Assembly (NCBI RefSeq): GCF_032062105.1
Contig: NW_026920828.1
Span: 620,001 to 684,000 of the forward strand
Source: Saccostrea cucullata
Lineage: Eukaryota
Reading direction: 5' to 3'
DNA: 64,000 nucleotides
Shown here: in pieces, positions 11,915 to 46,682 of the stretch
Layout of the letters: every line of letters starts with the position of its first letter
Numbering within the stretch: the first letter of the stretch is position 1
Position numbers and translations under genes: made by a program
The notes under the pieces: generated by a model
Seen by the model: only the letters and a program-made list of their open reading frames with translations
Databases searched by the model: none
What the model was told of the DNA's origin: nothing

Positions 11915-12597
11915 CAGGTCTGGTACAATCACTAGATTTAGCTATGTAGTTTGATTTACCTACATAGCTTTATTTACCTACCTGAGGTAGCTTTATTTAG
12001 CTACCAAATCAATTGATTTCTATATAAAAGCATTTTTCTCAGGGTGTGCAGAAAATATCATTTTGATGCAGTGATCATTTTCAACTTTGAACTCATCTGA
12101 AAACAACTCATGAAAAAATCCCGCTCGAAGAAATGTCTTTCTCTGCGCAATTGCAATCAAAGTTCTGAAAGTTTTGGGGCTATGTATGACAGTTAGAACA
12201 GTTACTCCTTGAACGAAATGACAAAGAAATCCAGTTCCGGTTAACACGATAATAGGTCGGTAATTATTCAGCACAATGTGAAGTAATTATACTCAGTCAT
12301 GCCTCAATGCACACATGAGAGAAGACCGTTAACTAAACAATGGAATTACATGTTTTGCTCTAAATTGTCCAAATGCAGCAATGTATAAACTATCTCTGCT
12401 TTGGATTGTTTTTTTAAGTCTCCCTAGTATAAATATCAATAGTCATTAAATTGCGATTTTTTGTCTCTTTTTAATAAAAAGAAAAATTTTGAAAAAGTTA
12501 CATTGAAATAGCTAAATAAAGCTACCTGAGATAGGTAAATAAAGCTACATAGGCAATTTTACCTACATAGCTAAATCTAGTGATTGTACTGGACCTG
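11915..12597. mobile_element. MITE, CAG...CTG ends, 5-bp TSD (hAT5-like)
   Basis: TIR CAGGTCTGGTACAATCACTAGATTTAGCTATGTAG is mirrored at the right end; TSD CTGTA at 11910-11914 and 12598-12602. Confidence 0.85.
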
Positions 12598-22345: not shown

Positions 22346-25300
22346 TTACAGTACACAACAAGCTGCTGATTTCTTTTTGGCGTCATTTTTGTCTGACTGA
22401 TCATTGGTGTAGGACTGTACTTGACTATTTTGGTCAACACTAGCAGACTTTGTCTGTGGTTGAGCAGACGCTGATGGTGGTTTAATTTTCTGAATGGAGG
22501 GATTTTCTCTTTCAAGGTCACCTTGCTTTTTTCCATCACTACCATTTACAGAAGAGTTTACAGATTTTGAGGCATTTAATGTTCTCTCTGTCTTCTCATC
22601 CTGATAAGTACTTTCATTGGGAATGTGTTCCTCAATCTTCTTAAGCAGTTCATCAAATGCTTTTCCCTCCCATAATAACTGAATGGACTCATCCTTTGAG
22701 AAGTTAACATACAATAGTTGTGTAAGAACCATGCTCATTGGTCCACCTGGGGGCCAGTCTATTTTTTCCATCAGCATGGGGATGATAGGTTTCTTCAGAG
22801 CATCAGCCAGACTGACTTCTCTCCTACAGTTGGCAGACAGAGCATACTTGGTGGTGACTGAGGACAGGACGACCTTACAACCTCTGACCCCCCGGTCAAT
22901 CTTGTCATACAGGGAATCCCCTCCCCCCATTTGGTGGATGTCCATCCAGCAGGTGAAGCCCTGACTGGTCAGTCTCTGGTACAGGGCTGATATCTCCTTC
23001 TGTTTACCCCACTGGTAAGAGATGAAAATGTCAGGGGAGACCACCTCTGATGTAGCCTAAAAACAAAACGGGTACCGGGTATGTCCTTTGTTATTGAAAC
23101 ATTGTTTTTCTCATAAATTAAATAATAGCTCAAAGAAACTGAAAAATTGACAAATACTTTTCCTTCCTTTATTCAAGATAAAGTTGAGCCCCCATAATTA
23201 CTAGTATTAGTGCTGAATACATACATATTAAGTTGTAAAAGTCACAATGAGATGATAAATTTTATTTCCTCAATTTTTCTAAAAATTGTATACAGGGAAA
23301 TTTTCACTGCTGTTTTAATTTTTGCTCCTTTTGCCCTTGTCACATGTGGGCGAAATAAAAATGGAGTGAAATCAAACAGCAAAACATAATTTCTTAAATG
23401 GAATTAAGATTGGGTGAATTTAAAACGGGGCAAAATTTTTGAAAGTATAAAAGGACAAAAATAACACGGGGCAACTATAACCCTGTAAACAGTATTGACT
23501 TGACAAAAAGTCAATACTGTAAGATATATATGTTTTATATAAAATATTTGAATATTTTTTGCTACTTGTATGATGCTTGTCTTGTATAAATCAGATATGT
23601 TTCCTAACATTCTATTCTTTACACAAAGCAAAAAAAAGTATCTAAAATATGAGTATTGATCCCTTTTGAGGAATGTTATGCAAATGTTTATTTTATGACA
23701 ACTGTGCAAATGTTAATGAAACAGTGAGACAGGTGCTATATTTCCATCTGTTTAATTTATATTTGTTAGAATCCCTCACCTTCTGTTTGTCAGGTGCTGG
23801 AGGTGAGTTGTTCCCCTTTCTGTCTGGTTTTCTAGGGATTACAATGTTCTCCACCACTGGTATCCACCAATTCTTATACTCTGTAAAGAGTGAAAAAAAT
23901 TACAATATCCAGTGCTTAAGCTGGAAAAGGATACATGTTTCATTAATAACTGTTAGATGACAAGCACACAAAATTATTTCATGGACAAAGCCACGATATT
24001 CTTTTGGTTCTCATTGTAATAATATATAACTATGTGTCTCAAACATTGAAACACTCTAATTGTAAAAGCACTTCTTTAACAGATCAGTAGAATTTAATTG
24101 TACAATGACAAGAAAATGATTGAGTGGTAAACTTAAATAAATAGAGAGGAACATAATCAACTTGAGACTGATCCTTCATCCTCATTCTTTACACCATTTG
24201 GTTTATAGGGCAGCATCAAGCACTGGTTGTAAGTCTGGGAAATTAATCTGTGATACATACATGTAGGATTAATAAAATCAAAGTTAACCAACCTTGTGAA
24301 ATATTCTGCTGATCTGGCATCACTTTCAAACAGTTGAGCTGCATGAGAAGTTCCGTAAACTTGGCAGTTGGCCAGATTCGGTCATCCTTGGTTTCCTCCC
24401 CTGGCCTTTGGAAAAATCGGATGAACAGGTACTCACTGAAGATTGGTCCCATTGAACCCATTGGGGGCCATGGCATTTTCTCTAAGAGAAGCGGGATCAT
24501 AGGTTTCCCAAGGTTCACAGACAAATTGACCTGCCATTGTAAAAATTAATTTCTATATATTGTAATGTATACCAGTCATTCAGGGATACAAAATGAACAG
24601 TCAGTTCAATGATGTCAGTTAGACTAACTGATGATCTTCTGATGTCAGATACAATTTAGCTTTTGATATAAACTGGTCATAAGAAATTCCTGTAAAATTA
24701 GAAATAAAAAAAAACTTATATTCATTTTTTATTGCTTATCTACCTCTCTGTTACAGTTGGGTGATTTTGCGTATTTCTCTGTCACACAAGAGATGACAAC
24801 TTTGGCCGCTCTTATCCCAGAATCAATCTTCTCAAACAGTTTATCCCCACCCCCCATCTGCCCAACATCCATCCAGCATTTATACCCTGCCATCTCCAGG
24901 TGGCGACTGATGAGTTTGACCTCATTCTGGTGACCCCACTGGTAACTAAGGAAGATCTCAGGGGGTTCTGGGTAATCCACTGGCTCATCTGCCACAACAC
25001 CCTCTGGAAGAAAAAATAAAATCTTACACAAAGTTCAAATTACTGAGAGTGAGCTATTATAGAAAACTTAGAATAAAACCCAATATACCATGTTTATCTT
25101 TACAGTTAAAAATAAATTTATTGATGCATGTGTATATTTTCATTTCTTTTTGTTTGAAAATAAATATAAATCAAACCTGCAGCTTTCATGGCATTTTCTA
25201 CAATAATGGCAGCATCCAAACGATTCATCTCCTGCAGGATATTCAGCACACCTTTAGAAGCCTCAAATGTCTTGTGTGTGGCATACCATTCACTCAGCAG

Positions 25301-28300: not shown

Positions 28301-31300
28301 AGGTCAGATTCAGCATCCGAAGCAAGCCCGGTAGTATGCATCCTTAGATGTATCATCCATGCAAGTTTGGTCAACATAGGGCTTATAGTTACTTGGAAAT
28401 GAAACCTGCACCAACAAATTTAACCTGTTCACTCAACCACAAAATGTAGGTCAGATTCAGCATCCGAAGCAAGCCTGATAGTATGCATCCTTAGATGTAT
28501 CATCCATGCAAGTTTGTTCAGTAGTCAACATAGGGCTTATAGTTACTTGGAAATGAAACCTGCACCAAAAACTTTAACCTGTTCACTCAACCGGAAAATG
28601 TAGGTCAGATTCATCAACCGAAGCAAGCCCAGTAGTATGCATCCTTAGATGTATCAACCATGCAAGTTTGGTCAACATAGGGCTTATAGTTACTTGGAAA
28701 TGAAAGCACCAAAAACTGCACCAAAAATGTTAACCTGCTCCAAAAACATTAACCTGACCATTACTTTGCTGAAATTGCAGCATCTGAAACTTTGACTGGT
28801 ACAATGAAACACATTAGAAGCATCTTCCATGCATGTCTAATCAATATAGGACATAGAAGTACTTAAAAAGAAAACTGCTCCAAAAAACTTAACCTGGGAC
28901 GCCAACGCCGACGCCGAGGGTATTACATAAGCTCCCCCAACTTCGTTGAGGTGAGCTAAAAATGATGAGATCGTGACCCAAACTGAACTTGACCTAGATA
29001 TTCATCTGAAATATCTGTATACCAAATTTCATTTCAGTATATGAAATTGTTGTGAAGAAAATGAACGGAAACTAAGTGGATCGACAGACAGACAGCAGCA
29101 AAGCAATATGCCCTCCCCTCTTCGAAAGGGGGCATAAAAATAATTTTCATATCAATCTATTACTGAGTATATAAATCATAAAATTTCATCAAATAAGAAA
29201 AACAAGAGAAGTCTCCTTGTGTACAATGATTATTTTAGTGATAACAATTCAACACAATAAACCCACTTCAGGTTGTATGACCCTCCTAGTAACTGAGTGA
29301 TTACCTCAGGCTGGTTCTCCGACACTTTCTTTATCAACATGGCCTGCATTGCCAGTTCGTTTGTCTGTGTTTTCTGGGAAAATGTCTGAATCAGGGGCAG
29401 AAAGTAGGTTTCAAACGTCTCTGACTTTCCATCATAACCAGCTGATATAGCATCTGAAAGTTATGTGTAAAATTTGTCACTTTATTTAAAAATACCTAAA
29501 AAAAAATTAGCTTCATATTTTAGCGTCTTCTGTGTGTTAACCAGACATTGCATTGTGTCAGTAGCCATCTTTTGCTCAAAGGCATAGCTATAAACTAGAA
29601 AACTAAGATTTCGCCAGATAACCTCTAACCCTTCCATGATGTCTTTTAAATATTCTTCCTTGTTAACAAAGGCCTGTTTTATAAACGAACTTCAAGGAAC
29701 TAAGACCAAAAACTTAAATAGATTTTAAAATTTTACAAAATTAATGATTCTGTTTAAAACTGTTAGCTTGAAAATATTTTGTTGTTGTATTCCCTTTACA
29801 AAAATTAAAACCATTTTTATTTTACTGTTAATTAGAAAGATATCTGCAGAATGAATTTTGGCCCTAGTCACAAGTTCAGATCACACCTACTTAGTGTGCT
29901 GAAATCCTTCTCCCTGAGATAGAGCTGGATCAGCCCCTCCATGCCCGCCGTGTCCATTAACTGGGACGTCTCTGGCCCAAACAGCTGCATGATGCTCCTC
30001 ATATTAGAGCTAATTAGCTCCTCCTCATTGTTCATCAGCCGCTGTACATGAGGAAATAATGGCTTCAGTCGACCCAATGTCTTCTTCTCTCTGTGCTGTA
30101 CAATATACCTTATAGTGTTATCTAATGGGAATTATTTTTTAAAACACAAACTACAATGTCTGATTGTAAGATACAATAACTCATTCTTAAAAATTACCGG
30201 GTACAATTCATTTAGAAAGTAGAAATTTTATCAATTGCATTTCCAGTGGAGTAGACCATACTAATGTTTGCTATTTTAATGATACAAACAGGTTTCTATA
30301 AATGATCCATTAAAAGGGTGACTAATTATTCAAAGCTATTTACATAAAAAGTTTACATTTTTAAAATACTGTATTTTGATTGATTGTACATGAAAACATA
30401 TACATATAATAATAAGGTGAAACACATCTTTTCAGAGGACAATGAAAATTAAAATTTTGAGTTTGCCAAAATAATATTTATGATTCTGATTGTTAAGCCT
30501 CTCACCAGGTTGATGTACTGCGGTAATCCAGCTACTGCTATCAGGCCATAGATATTGAGGTGCTGCCTCTGTAGACTTATGTACTCCCGCTCCTCCGACA
30601 GACAGAAGAGGAAGACGCGTAGGATAGCATCATCCATCTCCAGATCCCGCACTTCATCTCCACTAAAACAGAAGATTTCTACTTCAGAGAACTCAAACTT
30701 GATTTACTCTAAAAAATTTTGATCTGATAAAAAAAAAATCTTTTTTTCATAGTTGGCATGAAAACAATAGAAAAATCAGAATTATGGTAATGAATGTCTA
30801 TACTCTTGGTGTTGACTGGAAAAAGATAGAGTTAAAGTGAAATGTACATAATAAAAATTTTGCTTCATATAATTGAAGAAAAAACCTGTCAACTACAAAT
30901 ACCTAGATTGATCACATCAATTTTCAATTAACATTTTTGAGAAACAGACAGACATAAGCTGTAAACATTTACGTGGAAGACTTGACAAGGTTGTATCAGC
31001 TGTAAATATTTACCTGGATGACTTGACCAGATTGTATCAGCTGTTAATATTTACCTGAATGACTTGAACAGATTGTATCAGCTGTAAACATTTACCTAGA
31101 TGACTTGACAAGGTTGTATCAGCTGTTAACATTTACCTAGATGACTTGACAAGGTTGTATCCAGGTTGTATCAGCTGTTAACATTTACCTGGCTGACTTG
31201 ACAAGGTTGTATCAGCTGTAAACATTTACCTGGATGACTTGACCAGATTGTTTCAGCTGTAAACATTTACCTGGATGACTTGACCAGATTTTATCAGGTG

Positions 31301-34300
31301 TAAACAATTACCTAGATGACTTGACCAGGTTGTATCAGCTGTTAACATTTACCTGGATGACTTGACCAGGTTGTATCAGCTGTTAACATTTACCTGGATG
31401 ACTTGACCAGATTTTATCAGCTGTTAATATTTAACTGAATGACTTGACCTGATTGTTTCAGCTGTAAACATTTACCTGGATGACTTGACCAGATTTTATC
31501 AGCTGTTAATATTTAACTGAATGACTTGACCTGATTGTTTCAGCTGTAAACATTTACCTGGATGACTTGACCAGATTTTATCAGCTGTTAATATTTAACT
31601 GAATGACTTGACCAGATTGTATCAGCTGTAAACATTTACCTGGATGACTTGACCAGGTTGTATCAGCTGTAAACATTTACCTGGATGACTTGACCAGGTT
31701 GTATCAGCTGTTAATATTTACCTGGCTGACTTGACAAGGTTGTATCAGCTGTTAATATTTACCTGGATGACTTGACCAGATTGTATCAGATGTAAACATT
31801 TACCTGGATGACTTGACCAGGTTGTATCAGCTGTAAACATTGTATCAGCTGTAAACATTTACCTGGCTGACTTGACCAGGTTGTATCAGCTGTAAACATT
31901 TACCTGGATGACTTGACCAGATTGTATCAGCTGTTAATATTTAACTGAATGACTTGACCAGGTTGTATCAGCTGTTAACATTTACCTGGATGACTTGACC
32001 AGATTTTATCAGCTGTAAACATTTACCTGGATGACTTGACCAGATTGTATTAGCTGTTAACATTTACCTGGATGACTTGACCAGGTTGTATCAGCTGTTA
32101 ATATTTAACTGAATGACTTGACCAGGTTGTATCAGTTGTTAACATTTACCTTGATGACTTGACGAGGTTGTTGAAGAATTCAATCGCTGCAGTACACATC
32201 CACCCCGTGTCCCAGTCATAATCCTCAGTCTTCAACAGACACAGGAACCGGTCCAAGTAGCCAGCTATCAGGTGCTTGTTGTTCTGTAGAAAAAAAACGT
32301 AAGGCTGAAATTCTTTATCTTTTTCCCAAGTCCCAAAACATTTTGGTTAATGAATGTGACACCTGTCTATTACTTTTTGCAAACATATTCAAGGCATATA
32401 CCTATGGTTGTAATGTTCCTTCAGATAATTATATACATGTATAATAAAAACCTCTTAAAATTGTGTACAAACCTGTAAGGACACAAATTCACTTGCTGAT
32501 TTACACAGTGAGTCCACCATTATCTCCTTGCCGACAGCTTCCATAGTTACCATGACAAGCTCCGCTAACTCCACCTCCACTTGTTTGGCCACTTTAAGTA
32601 ATCTACAGAGAAAATTAAAGTCAAAATGATAGGTACATGTCACTATATGATGTATAATGTTAATTTGTTACGCAAGTTTTGTAATCTCTTTCTGTAAGCT
32701 ATTTCAGTTTTAGGAACAAAGTGGAATGAACTAAAAAAAAAAGCTATAAATGACTTTGATGCCATTTTTATGTAAATTTCCTTCATTTGACATTTTGTTT
32801 TTTTTAATAAACTCATAGCATGCAAAAATAAGAACAATTAATTTGTAGATTGTACTTGTTTTGATGTTATCATTTATATCTTCAAAATAACAGTGTATGT
32901 GTCCCCCTACTCAAGTTGTTTCATGAGGTTCTCCACAAATGATTCAGCCTTGGATGAGTAATCCTCCACATTTTCACACACGGAATAATCCACGGTCGTC
33001 AGAGCTACTATCATCTCCTTAGCTAAGGTAACATTTTCCTGCAGTAAGTAAAGTTTATTGCATGAAATATAGTATAAAGAATCCAGAGCAGTAAACAAAG
33101 AGTCCAGAGTGGTGTATAAGAGTAGAAAGGGCAGTTTATAAAGTATCTAAAGCCAGGTATGAACTAAAAAAAATTCATTGCTAAAGAACTAGAACCACTG
33201 ACAGAGGAATGTCATGAATTTCACAAAGTTTTGAAAAGACACCCTTGTTCATTACGGCTGTGCACTTAGTCTGTTTGCTTCATACCCAGGGGTACATATT
33301 TTTAAAAGAATTATGTTTTCGCTTTAAAATCAAATTGACAATGGAATTCAATCCTGATCCTGGGAGCATGAAATTCAAAATTTTGGGAGAGGCATCATCC
33401 CTGGTCATCACGACTATATCTTTCTGCTACTAGTATATATACAGGAGAAAATTTTATCCATTTTCCCTGCATAATCAAAGAACCCATCCTAACTCTATAA
33501 CTCTGGGACCATTGATTTTACAAATGTTGGTACAGAGCTTATTTCTTGCTATAACCGACAATTCAACTGCTGCAGCTTGATGTCCAAGGGTAAATTAAAC
33601 TAGAACTGTCGAAATGGGACAAAATACCCCCCGCTGGGTTTTTCAGAGGTAAGTTTTTCCACAATAAAGATATGTATCACACATGAATTATGAAATTTTT
33701 CTTCCAGTGACCTTGAAGTTCCCCAAATGACCTTGGGTAAAGGTTTTGACACACCCTTGGGTCATGGGCAATCTTTGTGTGAAATGAGAACCTAACAAGT
33801 TTATCCATAAGAAAGATATGGACCAGACACAAATTATGAATTTTACTTCCAGTGACCTTGAACTTCTCCAAATGATCTTGGGTCAAGGTCATGACACACC
33901 CTAAGGTCAAGGGCAATCTTTGTGTGAAATGAGAACCTACCAAATTTATCCATAAGAAAGATATGGACTGGACACAAATTATGAACTTTTTCTTCCAGTG
34001 ACCTTGAACTTCCCCAAATGACCTTGGATCAAGGTCATGTCACACCCTTAGGTTATGGGCAATCTTTGCGTGAAATGAGAACCTACCAAGTTTATCCATA
34101 AGAAAGATATGGACTGGACACAAATTATGAACTTTTTCTTCCAGTGACCTTGAATTTCCCCAAATGACCTTGGGTCAAGGTCATGACACACCCTTGGGTC
34201 ATGGGCAATCTTTGCATGAAATAAGAACCTACCAAGTTTATCCATAAAAAAGATGTAGACCGGAAACGAATAATTAAATTTTTCTTCCAGTGACCTTGAA

Positions 34301-37300
34301 CTTCCCCAAATGACCTTGGGTCAAGGTCATGACACACCCTTGGGTCATGGGCAATCTTTGTATGAAATGAGAACCTACCAAGTTTATCCATAAGAAAGAT
34401 ATGGACTGGACACGAATTATGAACTTTTTCTTCCAGTGACATTGAACTTCCCCAAATGACCTTGGGTCAAGGTCATGACAACCCTTAGGTCATGGGCAAT
34501 CTTTGTGTGGAGTAGTAGATTCTAATGTCCCTCCGTAAGAAAGATATGGACCGGACACGTTTGCACAGACAGACGGACAAGGTGATTCCCATATACCCCC
34601 CCCAAACTTCGTTTGCGGGGGGTATAAAGAGAGGATTTTTTGAAAATTGCATAAATTTTGACTTATAAAAACTAATAAAAGCTGATAGCATTAAAGTTAA
34701 CACACCAATGGACTATCAATAGGTCACCTAAAAAGAGAAAAGTAAGTTTTTTACCTTCCACTTCCAGGTGCCTTTCCATTTATTGTCGGCAATGATCTGA
34801 TTAGCAGCCTCCATTAGATTTTTGTGACACCACTGACAACATCGGACAACAAAGGACAACCAAAGTCTGGCCAGCTCTGCCCTAAATACAGGGATCACAG
34901 TTACATTTAACTCAGATTTACACAAAATTGATGAAATTACATTTTCATGAAGTTTAAAACCATGTTGTTAACTTTATGGATTATAAATACTAGTAATCAA
35001 ATTATGTTAATTCATAGCGAATCAAACTGTTTTTTCCTGGCGCTTTCCTTTGAACATGTTTTACTGCATTTGTAGTATTGGTTTTTGATAGAATATGTTT
35101 TTTTTCTCTATTTGGTCGTGGGTGTTAAAAACACATACCTTGGTTTTAGATGACGTTTGTATTTATCTATTTAGGGGGTAGGGATGTTAAATGTTAATAC
35201 CTTGGTCCTTGGTTTTAGATGACACATACATTTATCTATTGGGAGTGTGTGTTAAGTCAATACCTTGGTTTTAGATAACGTATGTATTTATCTATTTTGG
35301 GGGTGTTAATACATACTTTGGTTTTAGATGACGTATGTACTTTTCCGCCGCGTTTTCCAGCTCGTCACCAGTTGTCGCATTCCTCGGAGATTCTTTGAGG
35401 ATCTCCACTGCTGTCACAACCCATACCTCAAACAACTTAGGATTCTAAGGGGAAACAATCAATCTATTTCCCAAATCTAGCTACTATTTCTAAAACATTA
35501 TTTATGAAAAATTTTATATTTCAGTATAAATTTTGCCATGGGAAAGCTTCTTCTTACAACAATTAAAATGTGATATTACTTGCATACTTGCAGATGCTTT
35601 TGAGCAAATTTCATTCAATCATTCTTCACTTATTTCATACAAAAATATCCTTCAATACTTCTGAAAATGAGCAATTGATGTACTTGATGTTTCTAAAATT
35701 CCCTACCTTAAAGCATTCCTCTGGGAGATACCTATAGAATCCGTCTAATCTCTCTAACAGACTGGACTCCTCTGGAGCTAACGTCTTCAGACTCAGAGCC
35801 TTCAGCAACTCCGCGATGTCTCCGTAAATCCCCTCTATCATACCCGAGTCCCTGAAAATACAGGCTCTCAGTCCCTCTAGATTTGTAAATACTTAAATCA
35901 TAACTATAGATTTTATACCTGTGGAGTAATTAGCAATGCTTACTTAATCTGAAATACATCTTTCAGTTTATATTTTGTTTTTTCAGCGATTTCTTGACTC
36001 TGAGGGAACTCTGGATCCTTGATGAAATTTTGAAGCATCACGAGCTGTTTCCTGTAGAAATCCACATCTTGTAAACCCTACACATAGCATGAAGAAAGAT
36101 TTAAAGTCAGCTTGCAGAAAAATATACTATAAACAGGGAAATATTTACCCTTGATTTATTTTTTTCCATACCACCCTTCTCTCAGGACTGTGACTGGTTC
36201 AAATTGTTTGCAAGTGTGAAAGGACAAAATTATCCCCATATATAGTAAAACTTCATATATACAGTAAAACTTCATATATAAGTTCATTAAATTGATTGTA
36301 TAATTATTATATTAAAGCATTTTTCTCTTGAACTATAAATTACAAGGCCATGCACTGTGACTGACATATATGTTGGAGCATATCTCTATCATTAAACCTA
36401 AATATACATGATACTCACAGAAAATGGCTGCCTGTCGTAGGCCTGGTAGATTTTGTCCTGGGCACTGTTGAATGTTTTTCTCAGTGTGACCGGTACCTGA
36501 GGGAGCTGAACCAGATAAAAGATGAACAGGTCCAGGCAAGCTTTGTGGACCTCAGGCAACATCAAACGTTCCTTGTCACTCCTGAAGTAAACATACAAAG
36601 ATCTGAATTTTATCTTACACTATGGACATAGAAACACGGGCACACATATATAAACACACAGATCCAGATCAATACATGTATGTCCATGGATTTCATTCTA
36701 AAAGTGAAAAATTCACACAAAAGCATGTGTTTAAAAACATTTTGTTGATCTGATATATACAAGTACACAATTTGTACTTCATTTAAGAAAACTCTGAAGC
36801 CTGTTGTTAAGAATCTTTTGCTCATACAGTACGTACTTCAAAATTCATATACATGTAATTATTTTGTGTGTTTGTATTTGCAGAAGACATTATTAAATAA
36901 CGTCCATGTAGACCAAATTGTTGATTTTTTGTTTGCATTCATTTTTATGCACCAGTAGTCAAAGATTTGAGGGTATATAGATTTCCCTGTCTGTTTGTCC
37001 CCCCTAAAAAACTTTAACCTTGCCACAAAAAAAAACTTTAACCTTGCCAGTAACTTTTGATTGGATGGACTTATATGGCTTTCATATCGCGATAACGCGT
37101 GTTACTCAAGTTGTTTGCACACACCATTATTGTTATGAGACTATACATGTATCTTTCAAAAAATAATGATTCATTGCTAAAATATTTTCAAAATAATTTT
37201 GACCCTCAGAAAAGCCCTGGTGTACAGTTAAACTAAACCAGAGTACCTGATGACCATGTTATCCAGTTGTTCTGGGTATAACCGCTGTACTGTGTTGCTA

Positions 37301-39700
37301 TAGGTGGATACATCTGCCTCATCCACAGAAGAGATGGCTTTAAATCCTTCAACGACTTTCTGTAGTTTATCTCCGTATAAATCCTGTTCAAAACAGCATT
37401 TTATTTATCATCTCCCAAGAACTGGTACATTTCCAGGGTTACCCTTGTACATAAGCCTAAGATATATATCTCATTTCATATAACTCATGTATGTAGTAAT
37501 TTAAACATTTTAAATTTGGAATTGCTTTCTATTATAAATTCCTTTGGTGAAAAGTAGCAGCACAAAATGTACACATACAGGTTTTTATATTAAAAATTCA
37601 GAAAGTTCTAATCATACCTATGCTAATATGTTGAAAAATCAATTTTTACCAAACATTGTACAAAGCAATTTTAAACATTTAATACAAGTATTAAATGCAT
37701 TTACCAAGGAATATTATTTCAGGATACAAATCAGGTATGAATTCCACTTTTTCATTACCGGTACTGTTGAGGGATAAGTAATATTTGCAACCTTTAACTT
37801 GAAATTCATGAAATCTACAACTACTAATTGTCATGACTGAGGACTGGATAAACAGTGAAAGCTATTCCTCTTTACCTTGAACTCTATGTGCTTTGTAACG
37901 GTTTTGAGAAATTCACAATGACCGCTCCCTGGTCCTGATTTTAACAGAGCCACATAAAAGTCCACGAATTTGTCCTCCAAAGTCTCCGACGAAATCAAAT
38001 TCTCTTTTACTTTCTCACTGAAATTAAAAAAAAGTGATATACAAAAAAATTACTGTAGATTCCTTATTTTTTGCGAGTACTTATTATCGGGATATGGCTC
38101 TTTAACAGCAAATTGTGAGAATTATAATTTGCATATGGGCGGTTGATAAGGAGGATTTACATGGATTTCAGCACCATAAAAATAGAAGCAAGAAATTTTA
38201 TTTCGCGAGTGATGCTTCTCGCGGAATTACGCGATAATAATTTCTTTGTGTTTAATTAGGAAGTTACAGTATGAAATGGTAGTGGCACTAATAATAATAT
38301 CATTTTCACTGTATTTACAATCAGAATCACAAACCTTGATGCATTTAGTAAGATCTTTAAAATGCGTTCAGCCAGGTCAAACCCTGGAGTCCGTAGAGCT
38401 GGGAAGCCTGCGACACACACTTTTCTCTGGAATGCTTCAATTATACTCAGAGTCCCGTTACAATCCAGGGATGATAACTCTGTTTCGAATATGTTGATCC
38501 TCTCCCAGAATTGATTTGCAATGTCATCATTGACAGAGGAGAAGTCACAATTCAAAATAAAGGCCTCCATGTTTATCACCAACAAGGCTGAAAAATAGAC
38601 TTGAATGAGTGGATTAGGATTAAATTAAAGCTTACATGAGGTAAAAAAGATGTTTGGTTTTTTTTTTATTGGATAAAGACAAAAATAATATATAAATAAA
38701 ATATCACTTTCCAAATGCTGGCCAGAGTAAAGTCTTAGATCATTTTATAAAAATCTTTTTTTTTTTAATTGTGTGGCAATTTAGCAGACTGAATTGCCAG
38801 ACAGCACAGTTGGTAGAGCACCTGACTATTCAAAGGGTGCAGGTTCAAATCCTGGTATGGACACAATTTTCTCACTTCATGGCCTTGCCTGTTATACATT
38901 ACTTGCCATGATCAAGCCTATATATAAAGCAACAGGTGAAAGACCAGTGCCAATGAAAAGTTTTATGAGTTGGTGTTTGCAGGGACAAAGAACTTTGAAG
39001 GAGGAATTATATTGCAGTCAGTTAGGTTCCATAACTAGTACTGGTCAATGGCAGCCAGACAGCTCAGTTAGTAGAACTGGTGATTAAGACTGCCATGGTT
39101 CAAATCAGTTTTCCTTTCTCCCTGGTTACACCTGCTGACAACTGCACATGTGTAACAGTCATACAACAACTTCATTGGACAAACCAAATAGTACCATTTT
39201 TAAAATTGTTGAAACTTTATTTTGTAACTGCGCATTACAAGAAGGAATGAAGACAGAAGACATCACTACATTCAGCTGTTTTTGTCATTATATATTTGAT
39301 CAAATATATAACTTTGATAATTTACCTTTTAGAATTTTTTGTTCATGCTATTAACATTATATATATATATATGTATTCAGTTTTTACATACCCTAGATCA
39401 CTTATGAAGAGTACGGGTACATCATGCATACAACTTCAAGCTTTGATCAACATTATAATCTCCTGTATGCAGAGTTAAAATAGACTACATCATTATATCC
39501 AAACATATCCTTCTAACTTTGTTTGAACAGTAAAAAACAGCACCAATCCACAAGTTCTTGTTTATATTGATCTAACAAGTGAAAAGTCCACAAAACGCCA
39601 TCTTTTCCTGTACGTATCATCATTTAGTTTTCACTATGGTAACAAGAGTTACATTTACATACAGTTCACCTTCCTCAGTCATCCATGAATGTTTAAACAT
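22346..39700 (-). CDS. ~1475-aa protein: helical repeats, coiled coil, Death domain, tandem TIR domains and C-terminal CaaX (innate-immune adaptor or candidate NADase)
   Basis: 23 phase-compatible GT-AG exons totalling 4428 nt: 39670-39700, 38335-38587, 37876-38017, 37247-37383, 36419-36581, 35944-36077, 35707-35851, 35317-35444, 34755-34881, 32911-33038, 32473-32602, 32150-32283, 30506-30662, 29891-30095, 29305-29453, 26396-26614, 26027-26256, 25595-25826 (coiled coil), 25177-25450 (Death: DWRLLASRLG..LLSEW), 24744-25003 and 24293-24530 (TIR1: IFLSYQW..CWMD..NCNRE), 23780-23880, 22346-23056 (TIR2: IFISYQW..NCRRE, ending KKKSAACCVL*). Confidence 0.88.
26830..29138 (+). mobile_element. Helentron/HINE-type element interrupted by a second HINE
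   Basis: Starts AGAGATGTTTGTAAAACACT and ends (GACA)n plus the ATGCCCTCC..GGGGGCAT hairpin; same family as 47484-48332. Confidence 0.7.
27071..28962 (+). mobile_element. HINE carrying a ~147-bp satellite array (~9-10 units)
   Basis: Units start at 28025, 28172, 28319 and 28466. AGCTCACC/GGTGAGCT subterminal inverted repeat; (GACGCC)n and hairpin at the 3' end. Confidence 0.75.
30955..32170 (-). repeat. 41-bp minisatellite (~29 copies) containing a TIR-gene exon end plus donor
   Basis: - strand unit ACAACCTGGTCAAGTCATCCAG|gtaaatgtttacagctgat versus the true junction ACAACCTCGTCAAGTCATCAAG|gtaaatgttaacaactgat at 32150. Confidence 0.95.
33598..34628 (+). mobile_element. HINE with a 146-bp satellite array (~6 units)
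   Basis: GTGACCTTGAA recurs every ~146 bp. ATACCCCCCGC/GCGGGGGGTAT inverted repeat; (GACA) microsatellite near the 3' end. Confidence 0.8.
35130..35340 (-). repeat. Decayed ~60-bp repeat (4 copies) of an exon end plus donor
   Basis: CGTCATCTAAAACCAA(A/G)|gta occurs at the true junction 35317 and at ~35263, ~35200 and ~35139. Confidence 0.75.
38800..39110 (+). mobile_element. Decayed tRNA-derived SINE heads
   Basis: A-box-like AGCACAGTTGGTAGAGC and B-box GGTTCAAATCC. A second, more degenerate copy lies at ~39060-39105. No intact cloverleaf. Confidence 0.5.
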
Positions 39701-40339
39701 TTCTCAATGGCTCCATCATACCTCAAGCAGAACACGAAATCTAGGTGAGAGGACCATTATTGATTACATGCACTTCAGGTGTTTTATTGCCCAGAAAGGA
39801 ATGTGGAATCATTCATATCTATTTATGTTTAAATTTAATGGCACCAAATTGCTATCTCAAATACATTTCACACTTAAAGAATTATCAACCTTAAGTTGAG
39901 GAAATCAATAAGTTTGTCTTGATGTTACAACAAATCAATCATGTAGTTGAAGAAAATTTTAAAGGGACAAAGAAAGTACACATGTTATATTGTGTACACA
40001 AATTTCAAAAGTAGTTATATGGATTTTACAAGCAATTTAAATTTCTCATCAAATCACTTGATTTTAAATATTCTACCTGTATTTACTTCATAAAATTGTT
40101 ATGCTCACTACTTTTTATATTTCATAACAATGAACAATTACGGTTAGCACATTGAGCCAAATACATAAACATTGGTGTTCTATGTTCAACACTTCAAATC
40201 AATTTATCAATTTGAAAAATATTTTGGGTAATGTACCAATATCCAATGTAACATAAAGAGAGAAAATGCTGAAGTACGAACAAGGATTTGAACCCAGGCC
40301 CTCTAACAGCCGCTTAGCTCACCTTAGAGAGTACCCACC

Positions 40340-42105
40340 TTAGCTCACCTGATAAACATTGGTTCCTGATCACCCATCTAGTTCACATGATGAACATTGG
40401 TTCCTGATCACTCATCTAGTTCACCTGATGAACACTGGTTCCTGATCACTCATCTAGCTCACCTGATGAACATTGGTCCCTGATCTCCCATCTAGCTCAC
40501 CTGATGAACATTGGTTCCTGATCACCCATCTAATTCACCTGATGAACTTTGGTTCCTGATCACCCATCTAACTCATCTGATGAACATTGGTTCCTGATCT
40601 CTCATCTAGCTCACCTGATGAACATTGGTTCCTGATCTCTCATCTAGCTCACCTGATGAACATTGGTTCCTGATCTCTCATCTAACTCATCTGATGAACA
40701 TTGGTTCCTGATCTCTCATCTAGCTCACCTGATGAACATTGGTTCCTGATCTCTCATCTAACTCATCTGATGAACATTGGTTCCTGATCTCTCATCTAGC
40801 TCACCTGATGAACATTGGTTCCTGATCACCCATCTAGCTCACCTGATAAACACTGGTTCCTGATCACCCATCTAATTCACCTGATGAACATTGGTTCCTG
40901 ATCACCCATCTAATTCACCTGATGAACATTGGTTCCTGATCACCCATCTAGCTCATCTGGTGAACATTGGTTCCTGATCTCTCATCTAGCTCACCTGATG
41001 AACATTGGTTCCTAAACACCCATCTAGCTCACCTGATGAACATTGGTTCCTGATCTCTCATCTAACTCATCTGATGAACATTGGTTCCTGATCTCTCATC
41101 TAGCTCACCTGATGAACATTGATTCCTGATCACCCATCTAATTCACCTGATGAAGTTTGATTCCTGATCACCCATCTAGTTCATCAGATGAAGTTTGATT
41201 CCTGATCACCCATCTAGTTCATCAGATGAGCACTGGTTCCTGATCACCCATCTAGCTCACCTGATGAACATTGGTTCCTGATCACCCATCTAGCTCACCT
41301 GATGAACATTGGTTCCTGATCACCAATCTAAATCATCTGATGAAGTTTGATTCCTGATCACCCATCTAGTTCATCAGATGAGCACTGGTTCCTGATCACC
41401 CATCTAATTCACCTGATGAATATTGGTTCCTGATCTCTCATCTAGCTCAGCTGATGACCATTGGTTCCTGATCACCCATCTAGTTCACAAGATGAACTTT
41501 GCTTCCTGATCTCCCATCTAGCTCACCTGATGAACTCTGATTCCTGATCACCCATCTAACTCATCTGATGAACATTGGTTCCTGATCTCTCATCTAGCTC
41601 ACCTGATGAACATTGATTCCTGATCACCCATCTAATTCACCTGATGAAGTTTGATTCCTGATCACCCATCTAGTTCATCAGATGAAGTTTGATTCCTGAT
41701 CACCCATCTAGTTCATCAGATGAGCACTGGTTCCTGATCACCCATCTAGCTCACCTGATGAACATTGGTTCCTGATCACCCATCTAGCTCACCTGATGAA
41801 CATTGGTTCCTGATCACCAATCTAAATCATCTGATGAAGTTTGATTCCTGATCACCCATCTAGTTCATCAGATGAGCACTGGTTCCTGATCACCCATCTA
41901 ATTCACCTGATGAATATTGGTTCCTGATCTCTCATCTAGCTCAGCTGATGACCATTGGTTCCTGATCACCCATCTAGTTCACAAGATGAACTTTGCTTCC
42001 TGATCTCCCATCTAGCTCACCTGATGAACTCTGATTCCTGATCACCCATCTAGTTCACCTGATGACCATTGGTTCCTGATCACCAATGTAGCTCACCTGA
42101 TGAAG
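40340..42105 (-). repeat. 38-bp minisatellite (~46 copies) containing the donor of the LINE-interrupted exon; includes a 13-unit higher-order duplication
   Basis: Unit CTAGCTCACCTGATGAACATTGGTTCCTGATCACCCAT; - strand TTCATCAG|gtgagcta. The variant pattern at 41151 recurs at 41645 (offset 494 = 13x38). Confidence 0.95.
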
Positions 42106-42119
42106 CAACTGTACTGGGC

Positions 42120-42594
42120 GCAGGTACGTGCAGGTAACTTAGACGCAGCTGAGAAGGTAAGACACGCTCCCACAGCACTCGATGCTAAAAAGATAGGAAA
42201 CTCCATAAAAGACCCGGAGGGGTGGGGCGAACAAAAACTTGATATAATGGAGGAAATTGTGACAGCAAAAGCCGAACAAATAAATCCAATGCGGGAAAAA
42301 CTCGAAGCCTCCAATGCTAATACGATCTTCGCCGAATCTACTGTTGATGTTTACTGGGGTACAGGCTTGGATACCATCGGCACAACTCAAACAGAACCAT
42401 CCAAATGGCCAGGTGAAAACAAACTTGGAGCTATCGTACAAAAAATTGCTGCCAAATATACTAGAAAACTCAGGAGCGCCTCCGTGCCTAGGAAAGGCTC
42501 CCAAAGCGAGGCTAGTCAAAAGAAACTCGACACATTTATCCGAGACTTGAAAAAAAATAAGAAGAAAAATGAAAACGACTCTGCTGCAAAATAA
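42120..42594 (+). CDS. LINE ORF1 C-terminal remnant containing a NADAR (YbiA-like) domain
   Basis: AKKIG..W..KLDIMEEIVTAKAEQ..FAESTVDVYWGTGL..WPGENKLG matches the NADAR/YbiA pattern. The stop lies 26 nt before the ORF2 ATG. The track's N-terminal MKQLYW comes from host/TSD sequence. Confidence 0.8.
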
Positions 42595-42620
42595 TGTGAA
42601 TTAACAATTTACACGATCAC

Positions 42621-45600
42621 ATGATTAAAAACTCTTTATCATTCCTCTCCCTAAATGTGAGAGGTCTAAATACCTATAAAAAGAGAGTAACACTGTTTGA
42701 GTGGTTGAAAGATTCAGATTTCGATATAATTATCTTACAAGAAACCCATTTTGTTAAAGAACATGAATTTATATACAATTCTAGATGGTTTGGAAACAAA
42801 CTTCATTGTTTTTCCGACTCTGTTTATAGTAGGGGCGTTTCGCTATTTTTTAAGCAAAATCTTTCAGTTGAAATATTAAATTATCACCAGTCTCTTGATG
42901 GAAGAAGACTATTAGTTAACTTAAAATATAATGAAAAAATTATTACAATTGTGAATGTGTATGCACCTAACGCTGAACACTCTAGAATTGCTTTTTTTAA
43001 AAGATTATCATCTTGGGTTAGTCAACATGCTATGAATGTAGAAGGGCTTGTTGTCTGTGGTGATTTTAATTGTCAATTAGACTAAAATCAAAATGATAAA
43101 AGTGTTAAGAATCTAAGAAATTTTTTGAAATATTTTGATCTAAATGACTGCTGGCTTTCCAGTGGAAAAACAAGAATAAATGGTTTAACGTGGTGTGATG
43201 GAGAGGACATTCCTAAGAGTAGAATAGATTATGTTTTTATGCATGATAATATGCTTTTCCCACTTTGTGATATTACTGTACGTAGAGCACCCAGTGTTGA
43301 AGGGACACGTATGAGCGATCATTTAGGCTTAGGTTTTGATCTCAGTACGTCTGAAATTTTACGAGGAAGTGGTTATTGGAAGCTAAATAACTCATTATTA
43401 GATGACGAAAACTTTTGTGAAAAACTAAGAAAACATATAAATAACGAAAAAGAAGAATTAAAGCAATTAAACGATCCAAAAGTTAGATGGGAACGAATGA
43501 AAATATCAATAAAAGACTTCTGCGTATCTTTTTCAAAAAATAAAGCTAATAATCAAAAAAAGAGAATCAAATTTATAGAAACTCAATTAAAACAAATCGA
43601 TTTAAAGCATTATACTGAAATAAATATGAGATACAAACGACAGCTTGAAGAAGAAAGAGATAATTATTATGCCCAGAAATGTAATGGAGCTTATGTACGA
43701 TCTAGAGCTTTGTGGATAGAAAAGGGGGAGAAAAGTAATTCTTATTTTTTAGGTCTTGAAAAAAAGCAGCAAATAAATAATGCAATAACTAAAATAAAGG
43801 ATGAAAATGAGACTGTTGTTTGTGACAATGATAATATTATGAAAAGCTTGTTTACTTTTTATAGCTCATTATACAGTAGTAAAAATATTTCTGATAATGA
43901 AGTTGAAAACTATTTTAAGAATGTTAACTGTGAAAAGGTCACAAAGGCCGAAAAAGAGTTATGCGACATGTTACCTACAAAATTAGAATGCGAAGAAGCT
44001 GTTCTTAAAATGACAGAGGCGTAGTCACAAACTTAAAAGGGAGGCTCAACTCCAGAAATTCTTTGACAAGCAAAAAAAAAAAAAAAAAAGAAATTCCCCC
44101 AAACTCGAAAATCCTATTTCGTGGGGGGGGGGGAGGTGTGGGGGGTAATGGCCAACTTTTTCAAAGGCAAGTTACTTTCAAATCCAATTTTTTTTTTTCC
44201 ATTTTTTTCCACAATTCTTCGATATAACTATAACTATACAAGGGTCAAAAAGTGGAGGTGGGGGGGGGGGGCAATTCAATGAATATTTCCTATAGTAAAG
44301 GTAATGTTGGGGAAAAATAGCTGTGATTTTGTTCTTCATTAAAAAGTGGGGGGGCACAGACATACTCTTGCCCCCCCAGATCTGAAAGTGGGGGGGCTAG
44401 TGCCCCCGCTGCCCCCCCTGTGACTACGCCTATGAATGAAAAATAACAAATCCCCTGGACAAGATGGCCTAACGGCAGAATTCTATAAAAGATTTTGGCA
44501 TGATATAAAGGAAATATTTCTTCCCTCTTTACTTAAAAGTATTGATGATGGTATTTTGCCCTTTTCGCAAAGAAACGCTGTGATATCCCTGATATATAAA
44601 AAAGGAGAGAAAGAAAATCTTAAGAATTATAGACCAATTAGTCTAACAAACGTTGATTACAAAATTTTCGCTCATGTTTTAGCTAATCGTTTGCAAAAAA
44701 TTGCTAGTAGAATAATTAGTAGTGAACAGAGTGCTTATATTAAAGGTAGATACATTGGAGAGAACGCAAGAATAATATTAGACATATTTGAATATTGTAC
44801 AAATAATGATATTGATGGTATTTTGCTCTTTCTCGATTTTGAAAAAGCTTTTGATTCTGTTGAATATAACTTCATGTACAAAACTCTAGAAAAATTTAAT
44901 TTTGGAGAAAACTTTATCAAGATGATAAAGACATTATACTTCAAACCAACTTTCAAAGTTAAAAATAATGGCTGGATGTCAAAATCATGTGAAATGCAAA
45001 GAGGGATTAGACAAGGCTGTCCTGTATCAGCGCTTTTATTTATTTTTGTGCTAGAAATACTAGCAGTTCAGCTTAAAAATAATGAAGAAATAATCGGTTT
45101 ATCGCCAGGTGATAATGGAAATTTAAAAATCGTTCAACATGCAGATGATTGCACTAATCTATTGAAAGACACTAATTCAATGAAAAAAGCTTTAGAAACA
45201 ATAAGTGAATTTAGCAAAGTCGCAGGCCCGAAATTGAATTTGGACAAAACAGAATGTTTATTAACAGGAAAATTTATTGAAAGGTATTTAAACGAAAATC
45301 ATATATTTGGTGTAAAAATTGCTAAAAGCCATGTAAAATCATTAGGTATATATCTCGGTCATGATAAGGATTTTTGTTATGACATGAACTGGACGAATAA
45401 ATTGGAGAAACTTGAAAGAATACTGAGCGTTTGGAGAAAGCGAAACTTAACAATCTTTGGAAAATGTACCATAATTAATACACTAGCATTATCTAAATTG
45501 GTATATAATGCTTTTATTTTGTCAAATCCAAAAAAAGAATTCTTTAAAAAAGTATCAAAACTTGTATTTAATTTTATATGGAAGAAAAAAGATAGGATAA

Positions 45601-46682
45601 AAAGAAATACGCTAATCGGTAAAGTTGACCAAGGTGGAATAGGTATTGTTGATATAGAGAGTAAATTTACTGCAGCAAAAGCCTCCTGGATAAAACGATT
45701 ACTAGATAAAGAAAATATAATATGTAAGATGTTGAACAATATTCTTAATCTTAAAAACCTATCAGTAAATGATATTGTCAAAACAAGTGTAGTTAACTTT
45801 GAAAATACTGCCTTTTTTAAGATGATAAGAATACCACTTTTTTATGGTGAGGTCCTTTCTGCTTTCAATAAATGTAAAAAAGTTAAACAAATTTGTACTT
45901 TAAAGAGAGACCAATTTTTATCGGAATTCATTTGGAACAATAATTTGTTTCAGTATGATTCTAAACCTCTTTGTTTTGAAAACTGAATACAAAAACAATT
46001 TTGATTGTACATATGCTAAATGTGTTAATATTAAAAACAAAATGTCATTTTTATTTAGAGATAATAGCATAAGAACTCTAGAAAATCTTAAATGTGACTT
46101 TTATTATTCAATTTTGTAAACATTAAATTTCAAAGACCAGTTTATGAAAATATGTGGCAAAAGACATTCGATCTTAGTTACAAATATATCTGGAAAAATG
46201 TATATTTAGCTAAAATTAAGTATATGTATGAAAAAAATGTTGCTGAATTTAATTATAAATTACTGAATTGCATATTGAATAATAATCTAAATGTAAGTAA
46301 ATGGAACAAAGATGTAGAACCTTATTGTGAATATTGTATGGTTGTTGAAGACAATGAACATCTCTTGTACAAATGTAAAATCTGTGAAAATATATGGAAA
46401 AAAATTAGTTTATTTTTGGGTTTTGAAGTCACATGGAAAATACTTGTTCTAGGTTTTTACAATGAAATCAATTCAAAAACAACGAGATTGAATAATTTAT
46501 TGTCCTTTGTATGTTTTAACATCTATAAATATAAAATGAAATGTAGATTTGAAAAAGAAAATATGTTTACAGAAATTTTTCGAAATAAGTTAAAAAATTC
46601 TCTTTGTCTACAAAACGCAATTCTAAAGAAGGCACATGTTATTAATGATAATTTATATCTAGATATAGGCAATTACTTGTGA
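42621..46682 (+). pseudogene. LINE ORF2 (APE endonuclease, reverse transcriptase, CCHC zinc finger), disrupted
   Basis: Endonuclease motifs SLNVRGL, LQETH, NVYAPN, GDFN, SRIDY, SDH. RT motifs KSPGQDG, NYRPISL, DFEKAFDS, GIRQGCP, HADD, LGI. Zinc finger CEYC..EHLLYKC. Premature stops at 43083-85 and 45984-86, plus a MITE insertion. Confidence 0.95.
44014..44434. mobile_element. 421-bp MITE inserted in LINE ORF2 (5-bp TSD)
   Basis: TIR CAGAGGCGTAGTCACA / TGTGACTACGCCTATG; TSD AATGA. Removing it restores LKMKNNKSPG. Confidence 0.9.

Follow-up and report, generated by a model that had tools for sequence, protein, structure and literature searches.

Do TIR domains of animals besides that of SARM1 act as immune enzymes? 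Screens of isolated domains miss proteins that depend on clustering, and a gene in Saccostrea cucullata encodes a candidate of this kind. We analyzed a 64,000-nucleotide stretch of its genome (RefSeq assembly GCF_032062105.1, contig NW_026920828.1, positions 620,001 to 684,000; referred to here as the window) that holds this gene, whose product joins a long helical-repeat region, a coiled coil, a Death domain, and two TIR domains (TIR1 and TIR2). The gene is spliced as modeled in the exons tested, the pocket residues of both TIR domains are invariant among the relatives counted, a C-terminal CaaX box is conserved, and the Death and TIR exons bear the pattern of gene conversion. Our tentative reading, to which we give slightly less than an even chance, is that the protein is a membrane-tethered sensor that, once clustered, would begin to cleave NAD+, chiefly through TIR2, so that linear ADP-ribose is produced and NAD+ is depleted locally.

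The gene lies on the minus strand from 38570 to 22346 and has 22 coding exons, which were modeled by tblastn of relatives and splice-site inspection. All introns are GT-AG, and the spliced coding sequence (4380 nt) encodes 1459 amino acids (aa) without an internal stop. The Crassostrea angulata protein P0003 (1452 aa) is collinear from the first to the last residue (981/1464 identities, 67%, with 17 gap positions); among relatives with a name, Saccostrea proteins are the nearest. A helical region (residues 1 to 855) is followed by a predicted coiled coil (856 to 932; exon 17, 25595 to 25826), for which there are weak Pfam matches of the coiled-coil type below the cutoff and a low-confidence long helix, and by the Death domain (933 to 1023; exon 18, 25177 to 25450). 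TIR1 (approximately 1036 to 1178; exons 19 and 20, 25003-24744 and 24530-24293) is separated from TIR2 (approximately 1230 to 1368; first part of exon 22, 22631 to 23056) by a linker (exon 21, 23780 to 23880) with a low predicted local distance difference test (pLDDT) score. The end of exon 22 (22346 to 22630) encodes a disordered tail. Pfam matches above the cutoff in these exons were Death (PF00531; E value, 6.7e-11) and, twice, TIR_2 (PF13676; E values, 5.1e-18 and, for TIR2, 9.7e-21). An initial annotation, made from the DNA letters, had proposed one large protein with a Death domain and two TIR domains, and the uninterrupted frame, the collinear relative, and the Pfam matches agree with it. 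The helical N terminus that it described is real but covers approximately 855 aa; the proposed length of approximately 950 aa was too long because the 77-aa coiled coil had been counted in.

Conservation was assessed in a family search with the last exon (TIR2) as the query, which yielded 214 longer relatives; our counts use the best 120 of these, and the choice of query inflates the TIR2 counts. Both C-x-x-E motifs named in the initial annotation are present, namely, NCNRE in TIR1 (N1106, E1110; 24746-24744), where it accompanies SYQW and WMDxGQMGGGD, and NCRRE in TIR2 (N1299, E1303; 22819-22817). All 120 listed relatives have, in each of the two TIRs, the alphaC Glu (E1110 and E1303), the betaA Tyr (Y1044 and Y1237), and the betaB Asp, together with F-x-S-Y-Q/H-W, W-x-D-x-x-Q-M-G-G-G-D, and Y-x-x-S-x-N-x-x-x-E. 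Alignment with SARM1 TIR chains placed E1303 on the glutamate of the KEIV motif, which we take to be the catalytic E642. The best PDB sequence matches were a chain labeled "TIR protein," SARM1, and AbTIR, and Foldseek ranked SARM1 first and SPARTA next. The "sensor-NADase" of the initial annotation is a plausible hypothesis.

The two TIR domains differ in what divergent members tolerate. Among 19 further Death plus two-TIR proteins from a deep search (newly listed and at least 480 aa long), the TIR2 Glu was kept in 19/19, whereas the TIR1 Glu was kept in 12/19 and replaced by Gln in 6 and by Leu in 1. The reverse query (Death plus TIR1) gave 15 new proteins, with the TIR1 Glu in all 15 and the TIR2 Glu in each of the 14 whose second motif could be located; a dead TIR2 was seen in none of these 15. 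Because divergent members lose the TIR1 Glu and keep that of TIR2, the pattern suggests that TIR2 is the site that cannot be dispensed with. A complex prediction for TIR1, TIR2, and NAD, run without alignments, gave a score of 0.01 and a mark of 0.34 and speaks neither for nor against such a complex. Elsewhere in the genome, a divergent exon encoding this type of TIR (G000:C3596, approximately 14215 to 14735; L009, L018) reads NCKKD, with Asp where the alphaC Glu would stand, and its BB loop contains an insertion. Three proteins with three to seven tandem TIRs (P0285, P0286, and P0331), one of them from a tunicate, are related to this TIR type.

The protein ends in KKKSAACCVL, a basic patch with a CaaX box (22378-22349), which the initial annotation had overlooked together with an Asn in the TIR domains discussed below, although its glutamate motifs were right. 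Cys stands at position -4 in 108 of the 120 listed relatives; of these 108, 88 have Leu as the last residue and 106 have Ile, Leu, or Val at position -2. The eight residues before the box contain on average 2.5 Lys or Arg and 0.45 Asp or Glu, and Cys makes up 0.17% of the remaining tail versus 1.6% of the whole proteins. The rest of the tail is not conserved and is predicted to be disordered (pLDDT, <50). CaaX boxes were also found in rotifer, flatworm, and crinoid members. Substrates of geranylgeranyltransferase I have Cys at position -4, an aliphatic residue at -2, Leu last, and basic residues upstream. Because KKKSAACCVL and the tails of the family fit this rule, geranylgeranylation of the CaaX cysteine, and with it a lipid anchor, is predicted.

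Gene conversion was revealed by a comparison with a paralog. The genome holds the window gene, its probable other haplotype (C3615), and one old paralog (C8943, matching P0002). We rejected C3615 as a paralog because it is 95.6% identical over 9 kb, introns included, and is thus most likely the other haplotype; no second haplotype of exons 5 to 7 was found in the genome. Relative to C8943, synonymous differences have reached saturation in four solenoid exons and in the coil exon (pS, 0.65 to 0.82; protein identity, 38 to 42% and 64%), whereas the Death exon has a pS of 0.049 (3 changes) and encodes an identical protein (100%). The TIR1 exons (pS, 0.19 and 0.33) and TIR2 (0.13) are also close, given a range of 0.04 to 0.14 between haplotypes. 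The linker and the tail are divergent again, and the identity mostly stops at exon edges. A pooled Fisher's exact test of this comparison gave p = 1.6e-35.

Trees of 15 bivalve proteins conflict between the regions in the same manner. In the solenoid tree, the window gene groups with its Crassostrea orthologs (support, 98/100), and pairing with the paralog is rejected (approximately unbiased test, p-AU = 0.0003); in the Death-TIR tree, it groups with the paralog (96/98), and the ortholog clade is rejected (p-AU = 0.0007). For scallop pairs, the Death-TIR tree gives a like change of grouping, and the solenoid tree is less firmly supported (84/97; p-AU = 0.05). These tree p values are post hoc, because the groups were chosen after the first trees had been seen. 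Paralog pairs in one annelid reach identities of 30 to 35% in the solenoid and 100% in the Death-TIR region. Judged from these patterns, the comparisons show that gene conversion homogenizes the Death-TIR exons between old paralogs. An assembly artifact is an unlikely source of the identical exons, because RNA contigs from independent runs join them to flanks of the paralog type (three loose ends, compared visually with P0002) and scallops repeat the conflict between trees. In mammals, gene conversion likewise keeps the signaling ends of TLR1 and TLR6 alike while their sensing ends diverge, as reported in the part of PMC2077338 consulted; those are transmembrane leucine-rich repeat receptors, whereas here the solenoid is cytoplasmic and the paralogs lie on different contigs.

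The part that varies among paralogs is the solenoid. AlphaFold2, given an alignment of 82 sequences, modeled residues 1 to 856 of P0003 as all-helical (pLDDT, 92.5; predicted template modeling score, 0.80). Foldseek matched this model to the HEAT proteins SF3B1, CAND1, and importin beta (template modeling [TM] score, approximately 0.25 to 0.35), and VIA-align matched it to ARM proteins (Z, approximately 20; root mean square deviation, 6 to 8; approximately 365 residues aligned over 454 to 856), with residues 1 to 366 barely covered. SARM1, whose ARM domain has an NMN/NAD+ pocket, was absent among the 50 matches listed, although such a pocket may still be present here, and these fold searches point to no ligand. 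As modeled, the solenoid shows a generic ARM/HEAT-like scaffold. Positions conserved in at least 90% of relatives number 2/855 in the solenoid, compared with 34/91 in the Death domain, 62/143 in TIR1, and 59/139 in TIR2.

We propose a mechanism that would connect these features. The CaaX cysteine would carry a lipid, membrane binding would be aided by the lysines and the adjacent cysteine, and the solenoid of each paralog would recognize a different ligand or disturbance. The coiled coil and Death domain would then oligomerize the protein, and paralogs sharing a homogenized effector might coassemble. The aligned TIR domains could complete a two-domain active site of the SARM1 type, whose products are likelier to be nicotinamide and linear ADP-ribose than a cyclic messenger, and local NAD+ loss would lead to cell death or stress. 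Sensing, assembly, catalysis, and an immune role are the parts of this proposal that we infer.

Several observations weigh against it. A wide fold search ranked the nonenzymatic TIRs of Hydra TRR-2 (Z, 17.1), IL-1RAcPb (15.9), IL-18Rbeta (15.7), and MyD88 (15.6) at or above the level of SARM1 (15.3) and so does not separate enzymes from scaffold TIRs. Most animal TIRs outside the TLR and IL-1R clades keep the alphaC Glu, so the feature that headed the initial annotation is a common one. Of 61 animal TIRs of this kind that were tested, no more than 12 were active, and the majority of these 12 made cyclic ADP-ribose (cADPR) without draining NAD+ (bioRxiv 10.64898/2026.04.20.719644, as far as consulted); taken by itself, the Glu is therefore a weak indication of activity. 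The Death domain, with its 34 near-invariant positions, suits partner recruitment. A CaaX box is lacking in 12 of the 120 listed relatives, including a partial record, three abalone paralogs, and several snail proteins with lysine-rich ends. Rapid divergence of a repeat solenoid is no proof that it senses ligands; exons 15 and 16 have ratios of nonsynonymous to synonymous divergence (pN/pS) of 0.23 and 0.08 between the two haplotypes, indicating purifying selection, with no sign of positive selection in this comparison.

The last of these points concerns the chemistry. In all 120 listed relatives, both TIRs have Asn at Glu-4, the position of the Trp of the WxxxE motif, an equivalence drawn from the spacing to the Glu, with HMMER placing the DWVH of SARM1 in an insertion. 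This position is W638 in SARM1 and W204 in AbTir. In the portion of bioRxiv 10.1101/2022.05.07.491051 considered, it is aromatic in every cyclase TIR surveyed (12/12); Trp-to-Ala changes inactivated L6 and ROQ1 and reduced AbTir (W204A). By analogy, the missing Trp may lower or abolish TIR activity. The Asn would favor plain NAD+ cleavage over cADPR production, and the "signal-generating" role suggested in the initial annotation is weakened because the alphaC aromatic residue is missing. That the protein is a membrane-bound producer of cADPR or an isomer, serving calcium or effector signaling, is therefore unlikely in our estimation, with the caveat that the aromatic rule is mostly bacterial. 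In its favor, most active animal TIRs made canonical cADPR, including those of a mollusc, rotifers, an echinoderm, and a lancelet (bioRxiv 10.64898/2026.04.20.719644, same portion), one or more of these may belong to the present family, and the invariant Trp of SYQW might stand in for the missing aromatic residue.

The order of Death and TIR domains also suggests a nonenzymatic scaffold adaptor anchored at the membrane, whose TIRs would bind TLR or adaptor TIRs, whose Death domain would recruit IRAK- or MyD88-type partners, and whose CaaX tail would sort it to the membrane like the C-terminal phosphoinositide-binding domain of arthropod MyD88. Such a C-terminal localization domain is described for arthropods in the sections of PMC7075850 consulted, and a lucinid member is coexpressed with TLRs in the gill according to those of PMC6836662. 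The TIRs of TLR2, IL-1R9, and IL-1R10 are inactive despite the Glu, the TIR fold here is as near to MyD88 and IL-1R TIRs as to SARM1, and a homogenized Death-TIR region fits shared partners. However, the MyD88 Box 1 (FDAFICY) and Box 2 (RDVLPG) motifs (PMC7075850) are absent; their counterparts are IFLSYQW and WMDxGQMGGGD, the BB loop being the invariant GQMGGGD. The Glu is retained in 120/120 relatives, and divergent members have lost it from TIR1 only, a pattern that is difficult to account for unless the residue has a catalytic use. We regard the adaptor as possible but not probable. Compared with MyD88, which shares the Death-then-TIR order, the window protein has an 855-aa solenoid and a coil in front, a second TIR, and TIR_2-type sequences nearer to NADase TIRs.

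The likeness to SARM1/TIR-1 consists of the helical-repeat N terminus, an oligomerization module, and a TIR with the betaA Tyr and alphaC Glu. The window protein differs in having a coil and Death domain in place of the SAM-SAM pair, two TIRs, Asn for W638, and a different BB loop; the E(R/K)LEAG of the SARM1 BB loop and WxxxE are not matched. It also differs in its C-terminal lipid signal, multiple copies, and variable solenoid. The mixture of MyD88-like and SARM-like domain logic noted in the initial annotation holds, although the protein is an ortholog of neither. A SARM1-type regulator of metabolism, development, or degeneration, in which the solenoid would sense a host metabolite and autoinhibit the TIRs, appears improbable to us. 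Full-length SARM1 was the overall best Foldseek match (TM score, approximately 0.15, reflecting domain order only), and transcript depth was low in two oligo-dT libraries. Against it, no SAM family turned up when six full-length relatives, P0003 among them, were scanned with Pfam, solenoids only 30 to 40% identical atop near-identical TIRs argue against one fixed metabolite pocket or solenoid-TIR lock, and lineage-specific expansion is typical of immune genes.

The family has been named before. Among the best 120 of the 214 matches, members occur in bivalves, gastropods, annelids, a nemertean, hemichordates, echinoderms, and lancelets, and further searches added flatworm, rotifer, leech, and crinoid members. 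No vertebrate names appeared among the matches listed (best 120 of 214, 342, and 161) or among 20 looked up; the phylogenetic distribution suggested as a check is, for the named matches in these lists, confined to invertebrates. Abalone and scallop genomes have several paralogs each. An extra WW domain is present in some scallop paralogs (P0016, P0019, P0022, P0027, and P0082) and is N-terminal in P0016, and deuterostome members can be aligned only from approximately residue 320 to 550 onward. In the passages of PMC6836662 on a gill-enriched lucinid gene, ARM-like repeats, a Death domain, and two TIRs are given as characteristic of ecTIR-DC family 6, for which Gerdol 2017 is cited. The window gene has the same long ARM-like N-terminal region, central Death domain, and two TIRs after it, found among listed matches in invertebrates only, and is by architecture a member of that family as described there.

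The architecture is therefore not new. The passages just mentioned call the lucinid protein cytosolic and guess at a role as a TLR adaptor, and they make no mention of a CaaX box, catalytic residues, or gene conversion. Aplysia members are listed in the relevant part of PMC9334734 as MyD88-like with an Armadillo-type fold, and we found that its genes LOC101850562 (P0067) and LOC101858605 (P0252) belong to the family; a sea urchin member (P0115) is named "MyD88-like protein L1." Both names follow domain content and imply no mechanism. In literature mostly outside subscription journals, we found no report for ecTIR-DC 6 of a CaaX box or prenylation, Asn at the WxxxE Trp position, gene conversion, or TIR1/TIR2 asymmetry, the loss of the TIR1 Glu included.

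The nearest other TIR family is that of the ROCO proteins (Neuralized-Roc-COR-Death-TIR) of molluscs, nemerteans, and lancelets, which have the same SYQW, GQMGGGD, and CxxE signature preceded by a Death domain and, in 4/4 examined, end in a CaaX box; they differ in their GTPase front end and single TIR. One such gene in this genome (G000:C13010, approximately 12290 to 13060; L007, L008; P0358) encodes Roc, Death, TIR, and CaaX with the same signature, and its nemertean and lancelet relatives additionally contain Neuralized and COR domains. A broader proposition, which we put forward as speculative and rather doubtful, is that ecTIR-DC 6 proteins are widespread prenylated intracellular pattern-recognition receptors, in which interchangeable ARM/HEAT heads sit on one gene-converted Death-TIR-TIR membrane cassette, with TIR2 cleaving NAD+ and TIR1 as its partner. 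They would resemble NLR immune receptors without the nucleoside triphosphatase, range from rotifers and flatworms to lancelets but apparently not to vertebrates, and have the Death-TIR-CaaX cassette in common with ROCO proteins. Because the predicted lipid anchor, the Asn for Trp, the TIR1/TIR2 asymmetry, and the homogenized effector are family-wide, the family is a well-posed test case for TIR enzymes in animal immunity: it offers a natural pair of TIRs whose pockets are invariant, naturally occurring TIR1 variants in which Gln replaces Glu, a predicted anchor removable by one mutation, and paralogs set apart almost entirely by the presumed sensor. If the favored mechanism is true, molluscs and other invertebrates have a class of receptor-enzymes that bears on shellfish disease resistance.

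The exon structure was examined with four RNA runs, aligned to two stretches free of long satellites. The reads are only 88 to 99% alike to the window and so derive from a relative or another population. Exons 1 to 8 (residues 1 to 404; 38570-38335, 38017-37876, 37383-37247, 36581-36419, 36077-35944, 35851-35707, 35444-35317, and 34881-34755) encode the first part of the helical solenoid. RNA contig joints cover all seven introns from 1/2 to 7/8, three with unmatched letters at the joint, and one contig of 1370 nt spans exon 1 to exon 8. Exons 9 to 14 (residues 405 to 705; 33038-32911, 32602-32473, 32283-32150, 30662-30506, 30095-29891, and 29453-29305) continue the ARM/HEAT-like solenoid in frame; introns 8/9 to 14/15 are based on collinearity with full-length relatives such as P0003. 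Exons 15 and 16 (26614-26396 and 26256-26027; residues 706 to 855) end it, and CT..AC joints for introns 15/16, 16/17, 17/18, 18/19, and 19/20 were seen among the 15 of 33 joint rows listed, which contained none for introns 20/21 and 21/22. Joints up to coil-to-Death were assigned to the window gene because its solenoid and coil exons differ strongly from those of the paralog. Depth on gene-specific exons was low, at most a few reads per position with approximately 1.7 to 1.9 billion letters per raw-read run. The idea that the N-terminal exons form a separate gene was rejected as far as tested, as RNA joins exons 1 to 8 and exons 15 to 20 and full-length relatives exist. Coding begins at 38570 and not at 39700, the outer limit of the stretch given in the initial annotation. 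A 5' untranslated exon (39392 to 39547, minus strand; upstream edge approximate) is spliced on by a joint at 38588-39395 in one contig (run X1), with a GT donor and an in-frame stop just upstream of the ATG.

The window has a G+C content of 34% and contains satellites and a long interspersed nuclear element (LINE). Satellite arrays lie at 27415-28717, 30957-32171, 33651-34509, and 40333-42104, with units of 147, 41, 146, and 38 bp, respectively, and three of them sit in introns of the gene. Two minus-strand stretches of open frames resembling exons of other genes (2459-3788 and 16838-17056), one with a hydrophobic N-terminal stretch, had no Pfam match at an E value of 0.1; one presumably resembles the start of a C-type lectin. 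An exon of a cyclin-dependent kinase regulatory subunit (CKS) gene was found at 53044-53301 on the minus strand (Pfam E value, 1.8e-19). The LINE-type retrotransposon (42028-46679, plus strand) carries a NADAR domain (Pfam E value, 2.1e-16) in an upstream frame, directly before the endonuclease and reverse-transcriptase frames, and its second frame is broken at approximately 43083 and at 44020-44435.

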